DNA of 64,000 nucleotides from Isosphaeraceae bacterium (GCA_033763215.1 JANRKW010000014.1:68214-132213), one strand, 5' to 3'. Positions 6,158 through 14,051 are shown, counted from the first letter of the stretch. A program made the numbers and translations. The notes: generated by a model from the sequence alone, not told the origin.

Positions 6158-7789
6158 TCACTTGAGACCGATGATCTGTCCCTGGGCGTCGAGATCGATC
6201 CTCTCGCCGGCCGGCCGTTCGGGCAGGCCGGGCATGCGGACGATCTCTCCAGTGAGAGCGACCACGAATCCCGCGCCCGCCGCGATCTCGAGATCGCGGA
6301 CGGTGAGGGTGAAGTCGCGCGGGCGACCGCGACGCTTCGGGTCGTCGGACAACGAGTCCTGGGTCTTGGCCATGCAGATGGGGAGAGCATCGTGGCCGAG
6401 CTTGCGGAGTTTGCGGATCTTGGCTTCCGCTGCGGGCAGAATCGAGACTCCGGCGGCACCGTACATGACCTTGGCGATCCGTTCGATCTTGGCCTCGATC
6501 GGCCAGTCGAGAGGATAGAGCGGCTGATACGGGGTCTCGGGGCCCGCAGCCGCCTCGACGACCTTGCGTGCGAGTTCGGCGGCGCCGGGGCCGCCCTGAC
6601 CAAAGACGTCGGCCGTGGACGACGCCACGCCACGCCCCGCACAATATCGGTGAACCACGTCGAGCTCAGCGTCGGTGTCGCTCGCGAATCGATTGATGGC
6701 GACGACGATCGGCTTGCCGAAGTTGGTCGCGGCGTCGAGGTGCGCCGCGAGATTCTCCAGCCCGCGCTCCACCGCCGCGGGGTCCGACTCGGTGAGCGAA
6801 TCGAGTGCGACGCCGCCGTGCATCTTGAGAGCCCGGATCGTGGCGACGATCACGATCGCCGCAGGATTGAATCCGCCGACGCGGCACTTGATGTCGAAGA
6901 ACTTCTCGGCGCCGAGGTCGAAGGCGAAGCCGGCCTCGGTGACGGCGTAATCGGCGTGGGCGAGCGCCATTCGAGTCGCGAGAACCGAGTTGCAGCCGTG
7001 GGCGATATTCGCGAACGGGCCGCCGTGGACGAATGCGGGAGTCCCCTCGCGCGAGCGGACGAGGTTCGGGTGGATCGCCTCCTTGAGGATCGCGGCCATC
7101 GCGCCCGTGATGCCGATCTCCTGGGCGAGCACCGGTTTGCCGGCGTCGTCGTAGCCGACGAGGATCCGGTCGAGCCGCGATCGGAGGTCGCTCGGCGAAT
7201 CGGCGAGGCAGAGGATCGCCATCACCTCGCTCGCCGCGGTGATGTCGAAGCCGGACTCTCGGGGGACCCCTTGGCTGGGCCCGCCGAGGCCGATCACGAT
7301 CCTCCGAAGCGCTCGGTCGTTCATGTCGAGCGCGCGCTTCCAGAGGACGTGCAGCGGCGAGAGACGCGTGTCCCCGAAGTGGAGCCGGTTGTCGATCGCA
7401 GCGGCGAGCAGATTGTGCGCCGCGGTGATAGCGTGGAAGTCGCCCGTGAACTGGAGATTGATCTCATCGGAGGGGATCAATCGGCTCGCGCCCCCGCCGG
7501 TGGCCCCCCCTTTGCGACCGAAGACCGGGCCCATCGACGGTTGCCGGAGGGCCAAACACGACCGCTCTCCGATCACCCGCAATCCCTGCGCCAAGCCGAT
7601 CGAAACGGTGGTCTTCCCTTCGCCGGCAGGGGTCGGAGTGATCGCCGAGACGAGGATCAGCTTGCCCGGCGGCCGTTTCGATGCCGCGATCGCATCGAGG
7701 CGAACCTTGGCCTTGTCGCGTCCATACGGTTCCACGTGTTCCGGAGCGATGCCGAGATCGGCGGCCAGGTCGAGAATCGGAAAGGACAT
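6158..7789 (-). CDS. fhs: Formate--tetrahydrofolate ligase (10-formyl-THF synthetase)
   Basis: Start MSFPILDLAADLGIAPEHVEPYGRDKAKV at 7789 (cat at 7787..7789). P-loop PTPAGEGKTT. Overall 543 aa, colinear with the FTHFS family. The end matches ...EIVRMPGLPERPAGERIDLD. Confidence 0.9.
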   Translation of the reverse strand: MSFPILDLAADLGIAPEHVEPYGRDKAKVRLDAIAASKRPPGKLILVSAITPTPAGEGKTTVSIGLAQGLRVIGERSCLALRQPSMGPVFGRKGGATGGGASRLIPSDEINLQFTGDFHAITAAHNLLAAAIDNRLHFGDTRLSPLHVLWKRALDMNDRALRRIVIGLGGPSQGVPRESGFDITAASEVMAILCLADSPSDLRSRLDRILVGYDDAGKPVLAQEIGITGAMAAILKEAIHPNLVRSREGTPAFVHGGPFANIAHGCNSVLATRMALAHADYAVTEAGFAFDLGAEKFFDIKCRVGGFNPAAIVIVATIRALKMHGGVALDSLTESDPAAVERGLENLAAHLDAATNFGKPIVVAINRFASDTDAELDVVHRYCAGRGVASSTADVFGQGGPGAAELARKVVEAAAGPETPYQPLYPLDWPIEAKIERIAKVMYGAAGVSILPAAEAKIRKLRKLGHDALPICMAKTQDSLSDDPKRRGRPRDFTLTVRDLEIAAGAGFVVALTGEIVRMPGLPERPAGERIDLDAQGQIIGLK

Positions 7790-7868
7790 GCGAACTCTCT
7801 CGAGAGATGAAGTGAACAAGGGAGGTTGGACGCACGGAGCCGGTCGAACCGACTCCGGATCGTCGATG

Positions 7869-10800
7869 TCAGGGTTTACCGAGGTGCTCCGCGAGCCATC
7901 CGTGCATCGCCTTCCACCATTCGATCCGATTCGCGGGCTGGAGGATCCAGTGCCCCTCATCGGGGAAGAGCACCAATCGGCTCGGAACCCCGCGACGTTG
8001 CAGCGCCGTGAAGAGGCCGATGCCTTGGGCCTCGGGCACTCGGAAATCGAGAGCTCCGTGGATCACGAGCGTCGGCGTCTTGAAGTTCTTCACGAACGCG
8101 CTCGGCGTCTGGCTCTTGTAGAGATCAGGGGCATCCCAAGGAGGTCCGCCGAACTCGAATTCGGGAAACCAGAGTTCCTCTGTTGTTCCGTACTTGCTCG
8201 TCAGGTCGAACACGCCCGCGTGGCTGATCAAGGCCTTGAAGCGGTCGGTGTGGCCCAGGATCCAGTTGACCATGAACCCGCCGTACGACCCGCCCGCCGC
8301 CGCCATGCGCGACTCGTCGAGGAAGGAATACGTCTTCAAGGCATGATCGAGCCCGAGCATGAGGTCGGTGTAGACGCGACCAGTCCAATCCTTGCTGATC
8401 TGGAGCGTGAACTTCTGGCCGTAGCCGGTCGATCCGCGAGGGTTGATCGCGACACCCACGTAGCCCGGGCTGGTGAACATCGCGTAGTTCCAGCGTGCCG
8501 ACCATTCGTCGTGCCAGGCACCTTGGGGGCCGCCGTGGATCAAGAAGAGCACGGGGTACTTCTTCTTGGGGTCGAATCCGGGCGGTTTGATCAACCATCC
8601 CGCGACCTCGTCGCCGTCGGCTCCCTTGAAGCGAAACTCCTCGGCGCGATGGAGGTCGAGCTCGGCGAACTTCGCCGCGTTGTGCTTGGTGAGCGCGACC
8701 GACTTCGATCCGTCGGACGAGGTCCGGTGGATCTCGGCGGGGGAGACCGAGTTCGCGTGGAGATGTATCAGGTTTTTTCCAGTGCTCGTCGCCGCCGTCG
8801 AGACCCCGCCCTTGGTGAGAATCTCGGGAGCCGCGACGAGCAGGCGTCCCGCTTCGTCTTCGATGAAGCCGATCCGCACCAACGGCTCCGTGCCCTCGTG
8901 GTCGACGACGGCGATCAGTTCGTAGAGAGTTCCGGCATCGACCTTCGACGGCGGCCCCCAAGAGAATCCGAGAACTGGTCGGTCGAGGGTTCGAGTCAAT
9001 TCGACGAACTGACTCGTTTCACGGCTCTTCACCGTCAAGACCCACTGATCCGACTCATATCCCGGAGTGTCCTGGGAGACGAAGGCGAGGAAGGCTCCGT
9101 CCGGAGAGAAGGCGGGTTGAGCGTCGGCCGCGGGGTTGCCCGAGGTCAGGTTGCGGAGCTTGCCGCCGCTTGAGGGTACGCTCCAGAGGTCGGTGTTCGT
9201 CGACCATGCCATGTTCTCGACCGGCTCGGCCGTGAACACGACCTCGAGTCCGTCGGGGGAGAAGGCGTAATCGCTCGACCCGCCGAACGGGGCGGGCGGG
9301 GTGTTGACGCGGAGTTCAGGAGTCACGTCGATCGCCGCACCCGTCGTCGCGTCGATCACGAGCAGATGGGACCGCTTGCCATCGTCCCATCGATCCCAGT
9401 GACGGATCATCAAAGAGTCATAGACGCGAACCTTGCTCTTCGAGGCGGCGCGAGCCTTGTCGCGGGCGGCGGTCTCCTCGGGGGTCGTGCCGGGGTAGAC
9501 TTCGGCGGCGACCACGAGCTTGTCGCCCTTGGGCGACCAGATCGGTCCGGAGACGTCGATCGGCAACTTGGTGAGCGGGCGAGCCTCGCCGCCGTCCGGA
9601 GGGATCAGCCAGACCTGGCTCGAGCCGCCTCGCGACGACGTGAACGCGATCTCGCGACCGTCGGGCCTCCATCGCGGATGGGTGTCGGGGCCGGGGGTCG
9701 CCGTCAACCTGCGCGGCTCGCCGCCTTCAACCTGTACGATCCAGAGGTCGGCGTTGCTCTTGCCGGCGGCGGGGTCGTACTCCGACACGACGTAGACGAC
9801 GAGCTTGCCGTCGGGAGAGACCTGCGGGTCGCTCACCGACTTGACTCCGAGGAGGTCGTCGACCTTCATCGGACGTCCGGCCGCCGACGCCGTCGAATCG
9901 AGCCCGCCCCAAACCACGAGCGCGAGCAATACGGCGGCGATTCCCGAGTTGTTCATGGGGGTCTTCCTCTCGAAGAGCCTCAGGATCCGCAGGATCACGA
10001 CCAGGCTGAGCGCGGCGGCGAACGAGGTGATCACGAGGATGAGGAACAACTTGCTCGGCGGATACTTGCCCCAGAACTGACCGGTGACGTGCACGAGCTT
10101 GTTGCCGACGGCCGTTGCCAGGAACCAGAAGCCCATCCAGAGGCCGCGGTAGCGGGGCGGAGCGAGCTTCGAGGTCAGTGAGAGACCGATCGGGCTGATC
10201 CAGAGTTCGGCGACGGTCAAGAGCGCGTAGCATCCGACGAGCCATCCGGGCCCGACCTTCCCGGTGTCGGCCCCGGCGAATCCGGCGGCCATCATCACAA
10301 CATAGGCGAGGCCGGTGACGATCATCCCCAAGATCATCTTGGTCGTCGTCGACGGCTCGCGACGCGCCCGAGCCAGGCTCGACCAGAGCCAGACCATGAC
10401 GGGGCTGAGCACGAGGATCAGGAACGGATTCACCGACTGAAAGGTCTCGGGGTCCCAGTCGGACTGGGTATTGTCGCGGGCGAAGAAGGTGAGCGTGACC
10501 GAATTCTGATGGAACGCCATCCAGAAGATCGCCACCACGACGAAGACCGCCTTGAGTCGCGCGGCGTCGGCAGCGACGCGGTCGCCGACCGCGAGGAACA
10601 TCGCGACGGTGATCGTCTCGATCGCCAGCCAGATGATCCCGAAATGGACGACGTCGGTCGGCCAGAGTCCCACCGCGGCGATCGACTCGGGCCAGGGGAC
10701 GAGCGGCCCCAGCAGCAGCCAAGCCAGAGCGATTCCGACCGCGACCATGTTGAACGTCTGTGCGAACGCGATTCCGCGGTCGCTCGCGGTCAACGGAGCG

Positions 10801-11534
10801 CTCGTCAACGCCAAGGTCTCCGCCGCTCGTGCGTTGCCGGCCTTGGCGCTGAACTTGCCCTTGTTCAACACGAAGATGAGGAGGCTGAGGAGCATGCCGA
10901 AGCCCGCCGAGCCGAATGCGAGGTGCCAGCCGGCCTCGGCCGGGAGCGACGTGCCGAAGAGGTCGTTGACGATCCCGACTCCGTTCTTGCGGATGTAGTT
11001 CGCCGCCAGGGGGGCGAGCGTCGCGCCGACGTTGATGCCCATGTAGAAGATCGTGTACCCCTGGTCGCGGCGGGGGTCGTCGCTCGCGTAGAGGTCGCCC
11101 ACGATCGACGAGACGTTCGGCTTGAACAATCCGTTTCCTGCGATCAAGAGACCGAGAGCTGCGAACAGGAAGATGTGATCGCTCGACGCCTTCGAGTCGA
11201 AGGCGAGAGTGATGTGCCCGGCCATCATCAGGACGCCGCCGATCAGGATCGCGGTCGAAGGCCCTGTGATCTTGTCTGCGATCAGGCCGCCCAGAAAAGG
11301 CGTGAAGTAGACGAGAGCGATGTACCAAGTGGCGATGTCGGAAGCGCGAGCGTTGGCGAATCCGAGATAGTCGGTCATATAGAGAGTCAAGAGCGCGATC
11401 ATCAAATAGAAGCTGAATCGTTCCCACATCTCCGTGAAGAAGAGCGTGAACAGCCCTCGGGGATGACCGAGGAAGCCGGACTCGGCGGAGCGCGGGGCGC
11501 CCGTCGTCGACTCGGAGGTGTTCGGCGGATTCAT
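7869..11534 (-). CDS. Single-ORF fusion of a POT-family (proton-dependent oligopeptide transporter) di/tripeptide:H+ symporter (N-terminal, ~526 aa) with a signal-anchored S9 prolyl-oligopeptidase-family serine peptidase (C-terminal, ~695 aa)
   Basis: Continuous frame 7869..11663. The chosen start MNPPNTSE is at 11534 (cat at 11532..11534); it avoids overlap with the upstream hydrolase gene. POT signatures: GHPRGLFTLFFTEMWERFSFYLMIALLTLYM (ExxERFxYY), GGLIADK, FKPNVSSIVGDLY. The junction lies near 9956, where RLFERKTP-MNNSGIAAVLLALVVWGGLDSTASAAG looks like a signal peptide or extra TM helix with an AxA site. After that comes a beta-propeller plus alpha/beta-hydrolase with PVLFLIHGGPQGAW, the nucleophile motif GGSYGGFM, and the end LFPDEGHWI. 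I re-translated the DNA across the junction by hand and found no stop or frame change. Confidence 0.8.
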   Translation of the reverse strand: MNPPNTSESTTGAPRSAESGFLGHPRGLFTLFFTEMWERFSFYLMIALLTLYMTDYLGFANARASDIATWYIALVYFTPFLGGLIADKITGPSTAILIGGVLMMAGHITLAFDSKASSDHIFLFAALGLLIAGNGLFKPNVSSIVGDLYASDDPRRDQGYTIFYMGINVGATLAPLAANYIRKNGVGIVNDLFGTSLPAEAGWHLAFGSAGFGMLLSLLIFVLNKGKFSAKAGNARAAETLALTSAPLTASDRGIAFAQTFNMVAVGIALAWLLLGPLVPWPESIAAVGLWPTDVVHFGIIWLAIETITVAMFLAVGDRVAADAARLKAVFVVVAIFWMAFHQNSVTLTFFARDNTQSDWDPETFQSVNPFLILVLSPVMVWLWSSLARARREPSTTTKMILGMIVTGLAYVVMMAAGFAGADTGKVGPGWLVGCYALLTVAELWISPIGLSLTSKLAPPRYRGLWMGFWFLATAVGNKLVHVTGQFWGKYPPSKLFLILVITSFAAALSLVVILRILRLFERKTPMNNSGIAAVLLALVVWGGLDSTASAAGRPMKVDDLLGVKSVSDPQVSPDGKLVVYVVSEYDPAAGKSNADLWIVQVEGGEPRRLTATPGPDTHPRWRPDGREIAFTSSRGGSSQVWLIPPDGGEARPLTKLPIDVSGPIWSPKGDKLVVAAEVYPGTTPEETAARDKARAASKSKVRVYDSLMIRHWDRWDDGKRSHLLVIDATTGAAIDVTPELRVNTPPAPFGGSSDYAFSPDGLEVVFTAEPVENMAWSTNTDLWSVPSSGGKLRNLTSGNPAADAQPAFSPDGAFLAFVSQDTPGYESDQWVLTVKSRETSQFVELTRTLDRPVLGFSWGPPSKVDAGTLYELIAVVDHEGTEPLVRIGFIEDEAGRLLVAAPEILTKGGVSTAATSTGKNLIHLHANSVSPAEIHRTSSDGSKSVALTKHNAAKFAELDLHRAEEFRFKGADGDEVAGWLIKPPGFDPKKKYPVLFLIHGGPQGAWHDEWSARWNYAMFTSPGYVGVAINPRGSTGYGQKFTLQISKDWTGRVYTDLMLGLDHALKTYSFLDESRMAAAGGSYGGFMVNWILGHTDRFKALISHAGVFDLTSKYGTTEELWFPEFEFGGPPWDAPDLYKSQTPSAFVKNFKTPTLVIHGALDFRVPEAQGIGLFTALQRRGVPSRLVLFPDEGHWILQPANRIEWWKAMHGWLAEHLGKP

Positions 11535-11637: not shown

Positions 11638-13017
11638 CTAATCGATCGCTCGGCCGTTCCCAAGTCCGCGGTTCCCCGAGACCGGCAGGTCGGTCGCCAG
11701 TCGATCGAGGATGAACGGCATCGCGACCACCGGCCCCGGGTCCGGATAGATCAGCGGAGCGCGGATCAATTCGAGATGATCGGCGTGGACGACCTCGTGG
11801 TCGGCGACTCCGGCGAGCTTGCTCCGCTCGACCGCGACGCAGCCGTCGCCCGTGCCGTCGGTCAACTCCTCGAATTGACCGAGCAGGGCGGGGCCGGCAA
11901 GCCGCGCGGCGATGCCCAGTCGACCGATGATCTGTTTGCTGACGGGGGCTCGGATCAGTCCGACGTCCCCGGCGATGATGTGGTAGCCGACGCTGGGCCG
12001 TCTGCGGTAGGAGTCGAGACGCCTCAGCAGACGCGAACCTGGAGTGAGATCCTCGGCGGCCGCCCCCAGCCCGTCTCCGAGAAAGGCAAGGGCGTCGGCG
12101 CGCGTCTTGCCGTTCACCGCCTGCACACCCTGGAGGAACTGGAGCGCGGTCTGCGCCTGGGCGAGATACGAGCCGCCGTTCACCGGGGCGATCATGATCG
12201 AGCTCGCGACCTCGCCCGAGCGATCGGGCTCGCCCTCGACGAGTTCTCGGGCGAGCAGGGCCCCCATCGAGTGCGACACCAGGGCCCAGGGGCGCTTCTC
12301 GCGGTTCGCGGTTCGAAATCGATCCCAGTCTCGTCGGAACTCGGCGACGGTCTCCTCAACGTCGCGATTGTACGGATAGTCGTAGACCACGACGCCGTAT
12401 CCCGCGCGTTCGATCGGCTCGACCATGTGCAGGAAGACGCTCGAGGTCGAGTTCATGCCGTGAATCAGGCAGACCGTCGGCCGTGAGGGGTCGTTCGGCC
12501 GGTACGACTCGCGGGGCCAGAGCCCGTAGAAGTTGCGTCGACCCTTCTCGCGCTCGACCCGCTCGATCAGCCGCTTCAATCCGCGTTCCCACGCCGGTCG
12601 CGAATCGGGGCCGAGACGGTCTCTCGGGATGGTGATCCGCGCGCTTGCGGGCTCGAACGTGATCGTCGGCCCGACGCCGAGGGCCTCTTGGAGCAGCGTT
12701 CGGGTCAACGCTCCTCCGAGTCCATCGGTGGGAAGCGCGAGGATTCCATCCGCCTTCGGAATCTCGACGCCCGCTGTCTTGGCGATCGCTGCGGCGAATG
12801 CGCCGAGTTCGATCTTGCGATCCTCGCCGAGCGGCACGACGACCACCACCGGCGCCGGTCCGTCGTCGTCGTTCGAGCGACTCGGAGCCGACTGAGCGAC
12901 CAGCAACACGCCGGCAAGAATGAGGATCGAGTTCACGATCGAGATGCTCCGCGAGATCCCGGCGCGGGCTCGACGCCGGAGTCGACGATCGTAGCCGAGA
13001 GCGGTCCGCCTCGCCAA
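11638..13017 (-). CDS. Secreted/membrane-anchored alpha/beta-hydrolase (lipase/esterase-like)
   Basis: N-terminal TM/signal segment SIVNSILILAGVLLVAQSA. Oxyanion region CLIHGMNSTSSVF. Nucleophile elbow VSHSMGA (GxSxG). Confidence 0.6.
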   Translation of the reverse strand: MARRTALGYDRRLRRRARAGISRSISIVNSILILAGVLLVAQSAPSRSNDDDGPAPVVVVVPLGEDRKIELGAFAAAIAKTAGVEIPKADGILALPTDGLGGALTRTLLQEALGVGPTITFEPASARITIPRDRLGPDSRPAWERGLKRLIERVEREKGRRNFYGLWPRESYRPNDPSRPTVCLIHGMNSTSSVFLHMVEPIERAGYGVVVYDYPYNRDVEETVAEFRRDWDRFRTANREKRPWALVSHSMGALLARELVEGEPDRSGEVASSIMIAPVNGGSYLAQAQTALQFLQGVQAVNGKTRADALAFLGDGLGAAAEDLTPGSRLLRRLDSYRRRPSVGYHIIAGDVGLIRAPVSKQIIGRLGIAARLAGPALLGQFEELTDGTGDGCVAVERSKLAGVADHEVVHADHLELIRAPLIYPDPGPVVAMPFILDRLATDLPVSGNRGLGNGRAID

Positions 13018-13135: not shown

Positions 13136-13591
13136 TCACTCATGACCGAATGCCGCGATGCCCGCAGCGATTGCCGCCCTTTTCAAGTCGTGGTCGAGAG
13201 TTGCGATCGGCAATCCGCGGCGGATCGCGAGCTCGAGATAGGAGGCATCGTATGCCGTCAATCCATGGAATCTCGCCGTCTGCAGGATGTCCTTGCAGAT
13301 CCGATCGTCGTCGTCGAGTTCGACGTAAATCGGAAGCGCGGAGAGAACCTCGACCCATCGAGTTGACCGCGACTCGGTCATCCTCTTCCGACGTTCTCCC
13401 ACGATCAGAGCGTTGGATACTTCCAACCGCCAAATCGGCGTTACGATTGCTCGATGTTCGGCGAGCGAGTCGAGAACGCTCTCCGCATATTGGTTGGACT
13501 CGTCCTCGAATGTCCACGACAGGGCGATGGAACCATCGAGGACGAACGACGCATCCAAGTCCTTTCGAAGTCGGCTGATCGACAACATCAA
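13136..13591 (-). CDS. vapC: PIN-domain ribonuclease toxin of a type II TA system (VapC-like)
   Basis: 151 aa. PIN acidic residues occur in the contexts VLDGSIAL, RLEVSN and LTAYDASYLELA. The start overlaps the upstream antitoxin stop by 4 nt. Confidence 0.75.
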   Translation of the reverse strand: MMLSISRLRKDLDASFVLDGSIALSWTFEDESNQYAESVLDSLAEHRAIVTPIWRLEVSNALIVGERRKRMTESRSTRWVEVLSALPIYVELDDDDRICKDILQTARFHGLTAYDASYLELAIRRGLPIATLDHDLKRAAIAAGIAAFGHE

Positions 13592-13830
13592 CGACGTCCT
13601 TCGTCGATCAGTTGACGGAGCGTCGAATCGGGACCGAGCTCGTTGCCGCGGCGGAGTTCCCGAATCGCCGCGATGGCGTCCGAGACGCTCATCGGCGATG
13701 CCGAGGGTTCGGGCACCAATCGGGCGATCGCTCGACCTTGTTTCGTGATGCGGATCTCCTCGCCTCGGGCGACGCGATCGAGGAGTTCCGCCAGCCGAGT
13801 CATGGCGTCATGGTCCGCGACGGCTTCCAT
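13588..13830 (-). CDS. vapB: Type II antitoxin (Phd/YefM-like) paired with vapC
   Basis: Internal ATG at 13830 (cat at 13828..13830) gives MEAVADHDAMTRLAELLDRVARGEEIRITKQGRAIARLVPEP. That is a typical Phd/YefM antitoxin N-terminus. 80 aa. ATGA overlap with vapC. Confidence 0.7.
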   Translation of the reverse strand: MEAVADHDAMTRLAELLDRVARGEEIRITKQGRAIARLVPEPSASPMSVSDAIAAIRELRRGNELGPDSTLRQLIDEGRR

Positions 13831-14051
13831 TCGACCCTCCGAGCTTACGCTTCCTCGAGCTCTCGATCTCGTCAGATCCAGCATGAGCGATCATAGGCCG
13901 TATTGGAAGGGAAGCCCGGGGCGTCGAGAGCAATTCGCAAGGCAACGACTCGAGGCTCCCGAGGCTTCGCGGAGTTGCCGCGAGGTCTCGGGAGCCTCGG
14001 AGGGCCGGATCATGGGAGATGATCCGGCGGAATTCGGGATCGAACTCGGAA

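Follow-up and report, generated by a model that had tools for sequence, protein, structure and literature searches.

In a 64,000-nucleotide (nt) stretch of DNA from Isosphaeraceae bacterium (GCA_033763215.1, JANRKW010000014.1:68214-132213), which we call the window in its entirety, we analysed an open reading frame (ORF) of 1221 codons at positions 7869-11534 that joins an oligopeptide transporter of the proton-dependent type (POT) to an S9 family peptidase. This ORF is very probably a derived, unrepeated read-through of a conserved two-gene Isosphaeraceae operon, in which a POT gene is followed by the gene for a signal-peptide-bearing S9 exopeptidase. A preliminary description of the ORF had offered two explanations, a genuine Rosetta-stone fusion or two genes joined by a lost stop codon or an indel. 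Our analysis supports the second, since POT and S9 are separate genes in all ten orthologous places compared and the S9 part has its own Shine-Dalgarno-like motif, start codon and putative signal peptide. The first was not borne out, as a fused gene was present in none of the ten places and no independent colinear full-length homologue was found.

Orthologous loci and the junction

The ten orthologous places comprised loci L001, L002, L081, L084, L085/L086, L087, L088 and L089 and the contig of the stand-alone transporter P0131 (Table 1). The two genes lie 26-124 nt apart, except in L001, where they overlap by 4 nt as called. Three complete isolate genomes keep the flanking synteny of the window, namely an alpha/beta-hydrolase gene, POT, S9 and a formate-tetrahydrofolate ligase (FTHFS) gene, and this shared order identifies them as true orthologous loci with two genes as the ancestral state. 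These cultured Isosphaeraceae (strain EP7, Singulisphaera sp. Ch08 and Aquisphaera giovannonii) encode both proteins, with order and strand unchanged, at 62-64% (S9) and 34-63% (POT) identity to the window, but they have a stop codon and a spacer of 26-49 nt between the genes, whereas the window has neither. A consistent arrangement of two genes with a gap had been named beforehand as evidence against a fusion, and two separate genes are present in ten of ten places, with a gap between them except in L001, where they overlap as called.

Table 1. Orthologous places, with identity to the two halves of the window ORF and the distance between the two genes
Locus	Source	POT identity	S9 identity	Distance between genes
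L087, L088	Closest relative; two contigs from two samples	73%	71%	74 nt
L081	Metagenome contig	64%	69%	50 nt
L089	Isosphaeraceae bacterium EP7, complete genome CP151667.1	63%	63%	49 nt
L084	Aquisphaera giovannonii, complete genome CP042997.1	35%	62%	40 nt
L085, L086	Singulisphaera sp. Ch08, complete genome CP155447.1, and a Logan contig	34%	64%	26 nt
L002	Isosphaerales metagenome-assembled genome	40%	64%	26 nt
L001	Planctomycetota metagenome-assembled genome	34%	63%	Two genes, 4-nt overlap as called
P0131 contig	JGI metagenome	71% on C-terminal half		Next gene 124 nt downstream

L001 comes from a long-read metagenome-assembled genome (MAG), and at positions 7374-7467 it contains a tail, PLKKAMPGV*, that resembles the Aquisphaera tail PLKRAMPGV* in a different frame from the called POT ORF. 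The POT of L001 is therefore probably frameshifted near its 3' end; its ATGA overlap would then be an artefact and the true spacer about 36 nt. For this reason the overlap was downgraded and not used as a precedent for the window.

Across the junction the protein reads ...RLFERKTP, MNNSGIAAVLLALVVWGGLDSTASAA and GRPMKVDDLL (segment across the junction of the fused chain, LFERKTPMNNSGIAAV), and the coding strand reads ...CTG AGG CTC TTC GAG AGG AAG ACC CCC ATG AAC AAC... Aligned codon by codon, the window tail LRLFERKTP corresponds to LKAFEPKDGRA* in L089, LKRVGPKSSDS* in L087 and LQRFGPPSSDA* in L081. By this alignment, the window POT ends at its natural place, two codons before the stop of its relatives. 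We considered whether the 15 nt before the internal ATG could be the remnant of an intergenic spacer left by a larger deletion, and rejected this because the codons of FERKTP align with the POT tails FEPKDG, VGPKSS and FGPPSS.

The internal ATG is preceded by the Shine-Dalgarno-like motif GAGAGGAAG. Among the 193 other internal in-frame ATGs of the window, any Shine-Dalgarno-like match of four nucleotides was present between -16 and -5 in 11%, and an equally strong one in four (2%). When the run of five Cs abutting this ATG was shortened to four in silico, the POT frame became ACC CCA TGA, with the stop codon overlapping the S9 start as ATGA, so that the fused ORF differs by a single nucleotide from an ordinary pair of overlapping genes. 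A further TGA of the alternative frame lies 27 nt upstream of this junction TGA, which confines a frame-joining indel to the last ~24 nt of the POT gene. Likewise, replacing one base of a TAG to give GAG522 or AAG524 would be enough to create the fusion.

The putative Sec-export features of the S9 part are internal to the window chain, yet its 14-residue hydrophobic core and the sequence ..ASAA|GRPM align in position with stand-alone signal peptides. The cleavage context, small residues followed by G(R/K)PM, is common to L001, L002, L081, L084, L085, L087 and L089 and to 79 S9 orthologues with a recognisable mature start, whose own signal peptides span 15-32 amino acids (aa). The junction had been described as either a cleavable signal peptide or an extra transmembrane (TM) helix; the ordinary core and the conserved cleavage motif favour the former, and a stable extra helix is less likely. 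The n-region of the window, MNNSG, contains no Lys or Arg, whereas at least one is present in 69 of the 79 relatives, and the fused context adds R519, R523 and K524. As a sign of adaptation to the fused state this was downgraded, since approximately 10 of the 79 stand-alone orthologues also lack Lys and Arg here.

Domain content and the search for other joined proteins

The ORF is a single unbroken frame of 1221 codons and a stop on the minus strand, which the preliminary description had not stated; it starts with the ATG at 11534 and stops at 7869-7871, and the open frame extends upstream to a TTG at 11663. It encodes, in order, a complete 14-helix POT, an ATG-led putative signal peptide and a complete PD40-propeller/S9 peptidase with a Ser-Asp-His triad (Table 2). 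Pfam assigned PTR2/POT and MFS_1 to residues ~25-520 of the chain, and PD40 and Peptidase_S9 to residues ~600-1220. These results confirm the earlier statement that one ORF holds both proteins in full, including the last TM helix of the transporter and the propeller, GGSYGG nucleophile and terminal His of the peptidase. The identical product is recorded at NCBI as 'oligopeptide:H+ symporter' of an Isosphaeraceae MAG (MDX2035706.1), in a protein cluster with one member on one 155-kb contig. Neither the 1221-aa protein nor the S9-only product nor the product of the neighbouring FTHFS gene led, by exact look-up, to a second assembly of the strain, and the exact junction DNA pattern, with 3-7 bases allowed for the C-run, had no match in JGI metagenome contigs.

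Table 2. Features of the joined frame and of the genes on either side
Feature	Position in window	Strand	Basis
ORF of 1221 aa with stop codon	7869-11534	-	Frame reading; identical to NCBI MDX2035706.1
POT module, residues 1-526	9957-11534	-	Pfam PTR2, NCBIfam TIGR00924, structure alignment, motifs
Last POT helix (TM12), residues 496-518	9981-10049	-	Hydropathy peak 2.83; TM12 homologues in the stand-alone POTs of L087, L089 and L081
POT cytoplasmic tail RLFERKTP, 8 residues	9957-9980	-	Codon-wise homologous to stand-alone tails, which go two codons further to the stop
Shine-Dalgarno-like GAGAGGAAG, 6 nt upstream of internal ATG	9963-9971	-	Sequence reading
C5 run abutting internal ATG	9957-9961	-	Read directly from sequence
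Internal ATG	9954-9956	-	Homologous to start codon of separate S9 genes of relatives (window MNN..., L087 MNR...)
Putative S9 signal peptide, residues 527-552; 14-residue core IAAVLLALVVWGGL, then ..ASAA before GRPM	9879-9956	-	Position shared with orthologues; cleavage predicted
Mature S9 peptidase, PD40 beta-propeller and alpha/beta-hydrolase domain	7872-9878	-	Pfam, NCBIfam Dpp5 model, 8WT1 alignment
Ser motif GGSYGG, residues 1081-1086	8277-8294	-	Motif reading; conserved in 8WT1 alignment
Asp motif, residues 1159-1167	8034-8060	-	Motif reading
His motif, residues 1191-1197	7944-7964	-	Motif reading
Upstream alpha/beta-hydrolase gene (Hydrolase_4, weak DUF7379)	11638-13017	-	Pfam; same position in L084, L085 and L089
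Downstream FTHFS gene, intact	6158-7789	-	Pfam FTHFS (793 bits, 14-555 of 556 profile positions); likewise located in L085 and L089

The transporter half belongs to the POT/PTR2 family (PF00854, TC 2.A.17; 189 bits against a cutoff of 27) and to the oligopeptide:H+ symporter subfamily (TIGR00924; 277 bits against a cutoff of 130). It is colinear over its full length, all helices included, with the solved 14-helix bacterial POTs GkPOT (4IKV), PepTSt (5MMT/4APS) and YePEPT (4W6V), with E-values of 8e-72 to 6e-59; chain residues 11-490 of YePEPT, for example, align to residues 19-517 of the window protein. The alignment and the ExxER(F)xxY motif in TM1 indicate a complete POT fold ending in TM12. 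The family motifs were found at residues 34-43 (ExxER, as TEMWERFSFY), 133-140 (GNGLFKPN), 163-171 (FYMGINVGA) and 441-452 (the TM10 Glu motif). The solved chains stop soon after TM12, whereas the window frame runs on into another gene. Among the other POT matches of a full-length word-index search, many were 670-790 aa long against a canonical length of ~500 aa, and one homologue, P0004 (892 aa), has a WD40/beta-propeller-like insert of ~350 residues between TM11 and TM12, in a loop expected on the outer face.

The peptidase half matched Peptidase_S9 (PF00326, 202 bits) and PD40 (PF07676, 70 bits), and the order of its parts, a beta-propeller and then a catalytic domain in which Ser, Asp and His succeed one another, places it in family S9 (clan SC). 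It also aligned with the S9 peptidase 8WT1 through GGSYGG (283 bits). The Dpp5 equivalog model (NCBIfam NF053518, MEROPS S9.012) was covered over profile positions 3-654 of 655 at 473 bits, below its cutoff of 900, and we therefore classify this half only as an S9 peptidase related to Dpp5. It shares with Porphyromonas gingivalis DPP5 and 8WT1 the PD40 propeller, the S9 catalytic domain and the Ser-Asp-His triad, has a putative N-terminal signal peptide, and matches both the Dpp5 model and 8WT1 over the full length. On the other hand, it lies well under the equivalog cutoff, and the score assigns neither dipeptidyl- nor acyl-peptidase specificity. In a different combination, the single chain of protein P0186 (1325 aa) unites a signal peptide and a PD40/S9 peptidase of the window type with an M49 (DPP3-like) peptidase domain at its C-terminus.

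Scanning one genome for each GTDB species, we found at least two Isosphaerales/Planctomycetota MAG loci with both halves colinear (L001 and L002), each of them two genes by ORF listing. The query for protein searches was centred on the junction (residues 330-830), which would let a true fusion score on both sides of it. An exhaustive HMMER scan of 1.84 billion representative proteins returned no protein matching on both sides among the best 150; the stand-alone POTs P0133 and P0131 end within two residues of the window junction, and the N-termini of stand-alone S9 proteins begin there. With the same query, a word-index search returned P0271 (663 aa) and P0272 (535 aa), both of which span the junction. 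The other matches, ~118 in number, were S9 proteins without a POT domain (660-750 aa when full-length, with some shorter fragments); cultured Aquisphaera, Singulisphaera, Tautonia and Paludisphaera are represented among these stand-alone S9 relatives. When residues 212-526 of the POT served as the query, 19 POTs of the window subfamily matched at 53-72% identity, all with POT/MFS domains only (528-552 aa when full-length, with some fragments).

The full-length word-index search is unreliable for absence, as it returned only POT matches and overlooked all S9 orthologues as well as POTs that are 64-73% identical. Its only match with both domains in full was the window protein itself (P0001, 100% identical), which the later sub-region searches did not return; claims of absence are accordingly soft. 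Transporters are not among the partners mentioned in a survey of domain architectures of bacterial S9 proteins. In the preliminary description such an architecture was not known as a described family, and indeed we matched no described or detectable fusion family; searches with the protein and its junction gave no colinear full-length relative besides the self-match, POT and S9 being separate, neighbouring genes.

The two junction-spanning proteins join the C-terminal part of POT to the N-terminal part of S9 in one called protein at the orthologous locus, in noisy MAGs of long-read style. On their contigs, L082:5300-8920 (ERZ25039474 contig_1413) and L083:5100-8700 (ERZ25039496 contig_40125), the POT, S9 and FTHFS genes are broken into pieces. 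In tblastn with Aquisphaera proteins the homology hops between frames several times, and the last POT helix is out of frame. We therefore read P0271 and P0272, from their sequences, as frameshift artefacts of noisy assemblies and not as fusions. They differ from the window ORF in being fragments of 535-663 aa with several frame hops in both genes, whereas both halves are intact and in one frame in the window.

Origin of the joined frame and fate of its product

In the read-through, the two ancestral genes would have merged into one frame by one small change, located in the final ~24 nt of the POT gene. The simplest candidate is one extra C before the S9 start, which would turn the ATGA overlap (ACC CCA TGA) into ACC CCC ATG A; alternatively, codon 522 or 524 may have been a TAG that was lost by a single substitution. 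We also considered phase variation of the C-run and rejected it, five Cs being too short. Whether the event took place in the organism or in sequencing and assembly is about even.

Several points weigh against read-through as the explanation. The cause of the joining rests on the sequence of one assembly, exact look-ups having found no second assembly of the strain. The fusion searches were imperfect, since the word-index searches overlooked known homologues and the self-match and the listing from the genome scan is a lower bound. In addition, the nearest relative is only ~73% identical, and a fusion common to unsampled relatives of the same genus is conceivable. Finally, a signal-peptide n-region without Lys or Arg, while the POT tail supplies the charges, is weakly compatible with an established fusion.

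With a probability just short of even, the joined frame is purely a sequencing or assembly error. The DNA of the organism would then have four Cs or a stop codon and two genes, with the ATGA overlap, and the fused ORF would be present only in the assembly. The ORF is one nucleotide away from a canonical overlapping gene pair, and that nucleotide lies inside a homopolymer; moreover, the gene-start signals of S9 are all intact, and the protein cluster is a singleton with one member on one contig. In other MAG assemblies (L082 and L083), frameshift errors have demonstrably mis-joined the same two genes, and the POT tail of L001 also looks frameshifted. In contrast, the window assembly is clean: 75% of its bases lie in open frames of at least 300 aa, compared with 70-90% in isolate genomes and 14-43% in the noisy contigs, and Pfam covers 18 neighbouring genes over their full length without a break. 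There are 88 C/G runs of at least five in the window, and the genes checked show no further evident frameshift; five Cs are also a short run for a homopolymer error.

The clean local assembly speaks for a real, recent and near-neutral mutation, which we regard as a serious candidate at somewhat below an even chance. The fused chain would then be translated, with the internal signal peptide inserted as a 15th segment and cleaved, or S9 would be initiated internally, or both, giving the same two working proteins as in relatives. Solved 14-helix bacterial POTs have both termini in the cytoplasm, and the topology is workable, as the POT half is colinear with them. Should the joined chain be produced, its charged tail (R519, R523 and K524) and the hydrophobic core directly after it would insert as an N-in/C-out segment with the peptidase outside. 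The peptidase would next be cut free by signal peptidase I, probably at the conserved site, an outcome equal to the two-gene state; such release is likely given the 14-residue core, a short length typical of cleaved signal peptides, and the intact, conserved cleavage context. The retained Shine-Dalgarno-like motif and ATG could also permit separate initiation of S9. A precedent for a precursor of a membrane protein and an exported protein is the Bradyrhizobium cytochrome b/c1 precursor (FbcH), which is processed at an internal signal sequence. Against a real mutation, expression and cleavage of the fused chain are predicted only, and nothing indicates that the fusion, a singleton, is inherited. 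If the chain is made and processed in this way, the fusion is probably functionally silent.

A real, stable and uncleaved chimera is unlikely. In such a protein the signal peptide would serve as a 15th helix and tether the periplasmic S9 domain beside the POT entrance, so that di- and tripeptides are handed directly to the transporter. The topology permits this with a tether of about 8-10 residues; the n-region without Lys or Arg, for which the POT tail provides them, fits it, and the conserved adjacency links the POT and S9 genes functionally. Set against it are a core of only 14 residues, the conserved and intact signal-peptidase context, and the retained Shine-Dalgarno-like motif. A second example was not found in the best 150 HMMER matches or in the word-index and POT-half searches, which is soft evidence, and the junction shows no sequence adaptation beyond that of stand-alone relatives. 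The topology first proposed thus stands in part: 14 POT helices and an extra hydrophobic segment would place the peptidase in the periplasm, where it would probably be cut free and not remain tethered. Were the junction real and uncleaved, it would represent a rare natural peptidase-transporter chimera that channels freshly cut di- and tripeptides into the importer over a tether of ~10 residues.

A conserved, undescribed POT-S9 fusion family, that is, a true Rosetta-stone protein, is highly improbable: beyond the existence of the ORF and its NCBI annotation as one protein nothing speaks for it, whereas none of the ten orthologous places is fused, POT and S9 each stand alone in all close relatives, the other two ORFs across the junction are frameshift artefacts, and the survey of S9 architectures mentions no transporter partner.

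Neighbourhood and role of the gene pair

The order alpha/beta-hydrolase (DUF7379/Hydrolase_4), POT, S9, zero to four genes and FTHFS is conserved across Isosphaeraceae (window, L084, L085 and L089). The mechanically called FTHFS ORF of the window, 6158-7960 on the minus strand, is 57 codons longer than from the likely start (MSFPIL..., at 7789) and overlaps the 3' end of S9; the shorter start leaves a 79-nt gap after the S9 stop codon. Further upstream there is a CAP-domain gene in the Singulisphaera locus, and a P-type ATPase and a DsbD_2 gene lie upstream in Aquisphaera and L083. Between the CAP-domain and alpha/beta-hydrolase genes of the window (13136-13884, minus strand) we also found PIN-domain (VapC-like) and Phd/YefM-type antitoxin genes overlapping by 4 nt, a pair that is absent at the matching position of the Singulisphaera locus L085.

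At the syntenic position POT diverges far more than S9, with 34-40% against 62-64% identity in Aquisphaera, Singulisphaera, L001 and L002, and there are three distinct POT C-terminal types among the loci. Taken together, these sequence comparisons suggest fast evolution or replacement of the transporter gene. Outside the planctomycetes, 13 Bacteroidota loci (L009, L010, L018, L029, L039, L047, L054, L060, L061, L065, L067, L074 and L080) have, immediately upstream of one to three POT genes in tandem and in the same orientation, a gene matching only the C-terminal catalytic part of S9. A full-length S9 of the window type lies within ~0.1-2.5 kb of a POT gene in several Prevotellaceae/Bacteroidaceae loci (L003-L005 and L015) and in L072, which is labelled Roseburia.

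Family knowledge suggests how the two proteins may act together. The S9 enzyme would be exported to the periplasm via its Sec signal peptide, where, as a Dpp5-like exopeptidase, it would trim oligopeptides to di- and tripeptides, and the POT would import these by proton symport. In P. gingivalis, periplasmic S9 dipeptidyl-peptidases supply di- and tripeptides to a POT importer (PMC8048996). That pathway likewise combines exported S9-type exopeptidases with import by a POT, but its components are separate proteins, described neither as fused nor as encoded in one operon. The proposed coupling of trimming to uptake is supported by conserved gene adjacency and not by the fusion itself.

In conclusion, only the individual POT and S9 members are new here, the families and the type of functional pairing being already known. 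The fused ORF is not to be counted as a new domain architecture or placed in Rosetta-stone prediction sets without read-level confirmation. In other public MAGs, frameshifts have visibly mis-joined the same two genes. Whatever the cause of the junction, the conserved operon-like pair is the working unit: a POT gene followed by the gene of a signal-peptide-bearing S9 exopeptidase is maintained across Isosphaeraceae, and S9-like genes adjoin POT genes in many Bacteroidota loci. By analogy with P. gingivalis, this conserved adjacency supports a putative route in these planctomycetes in which peptides are trimmed in the periplasm and then imported.

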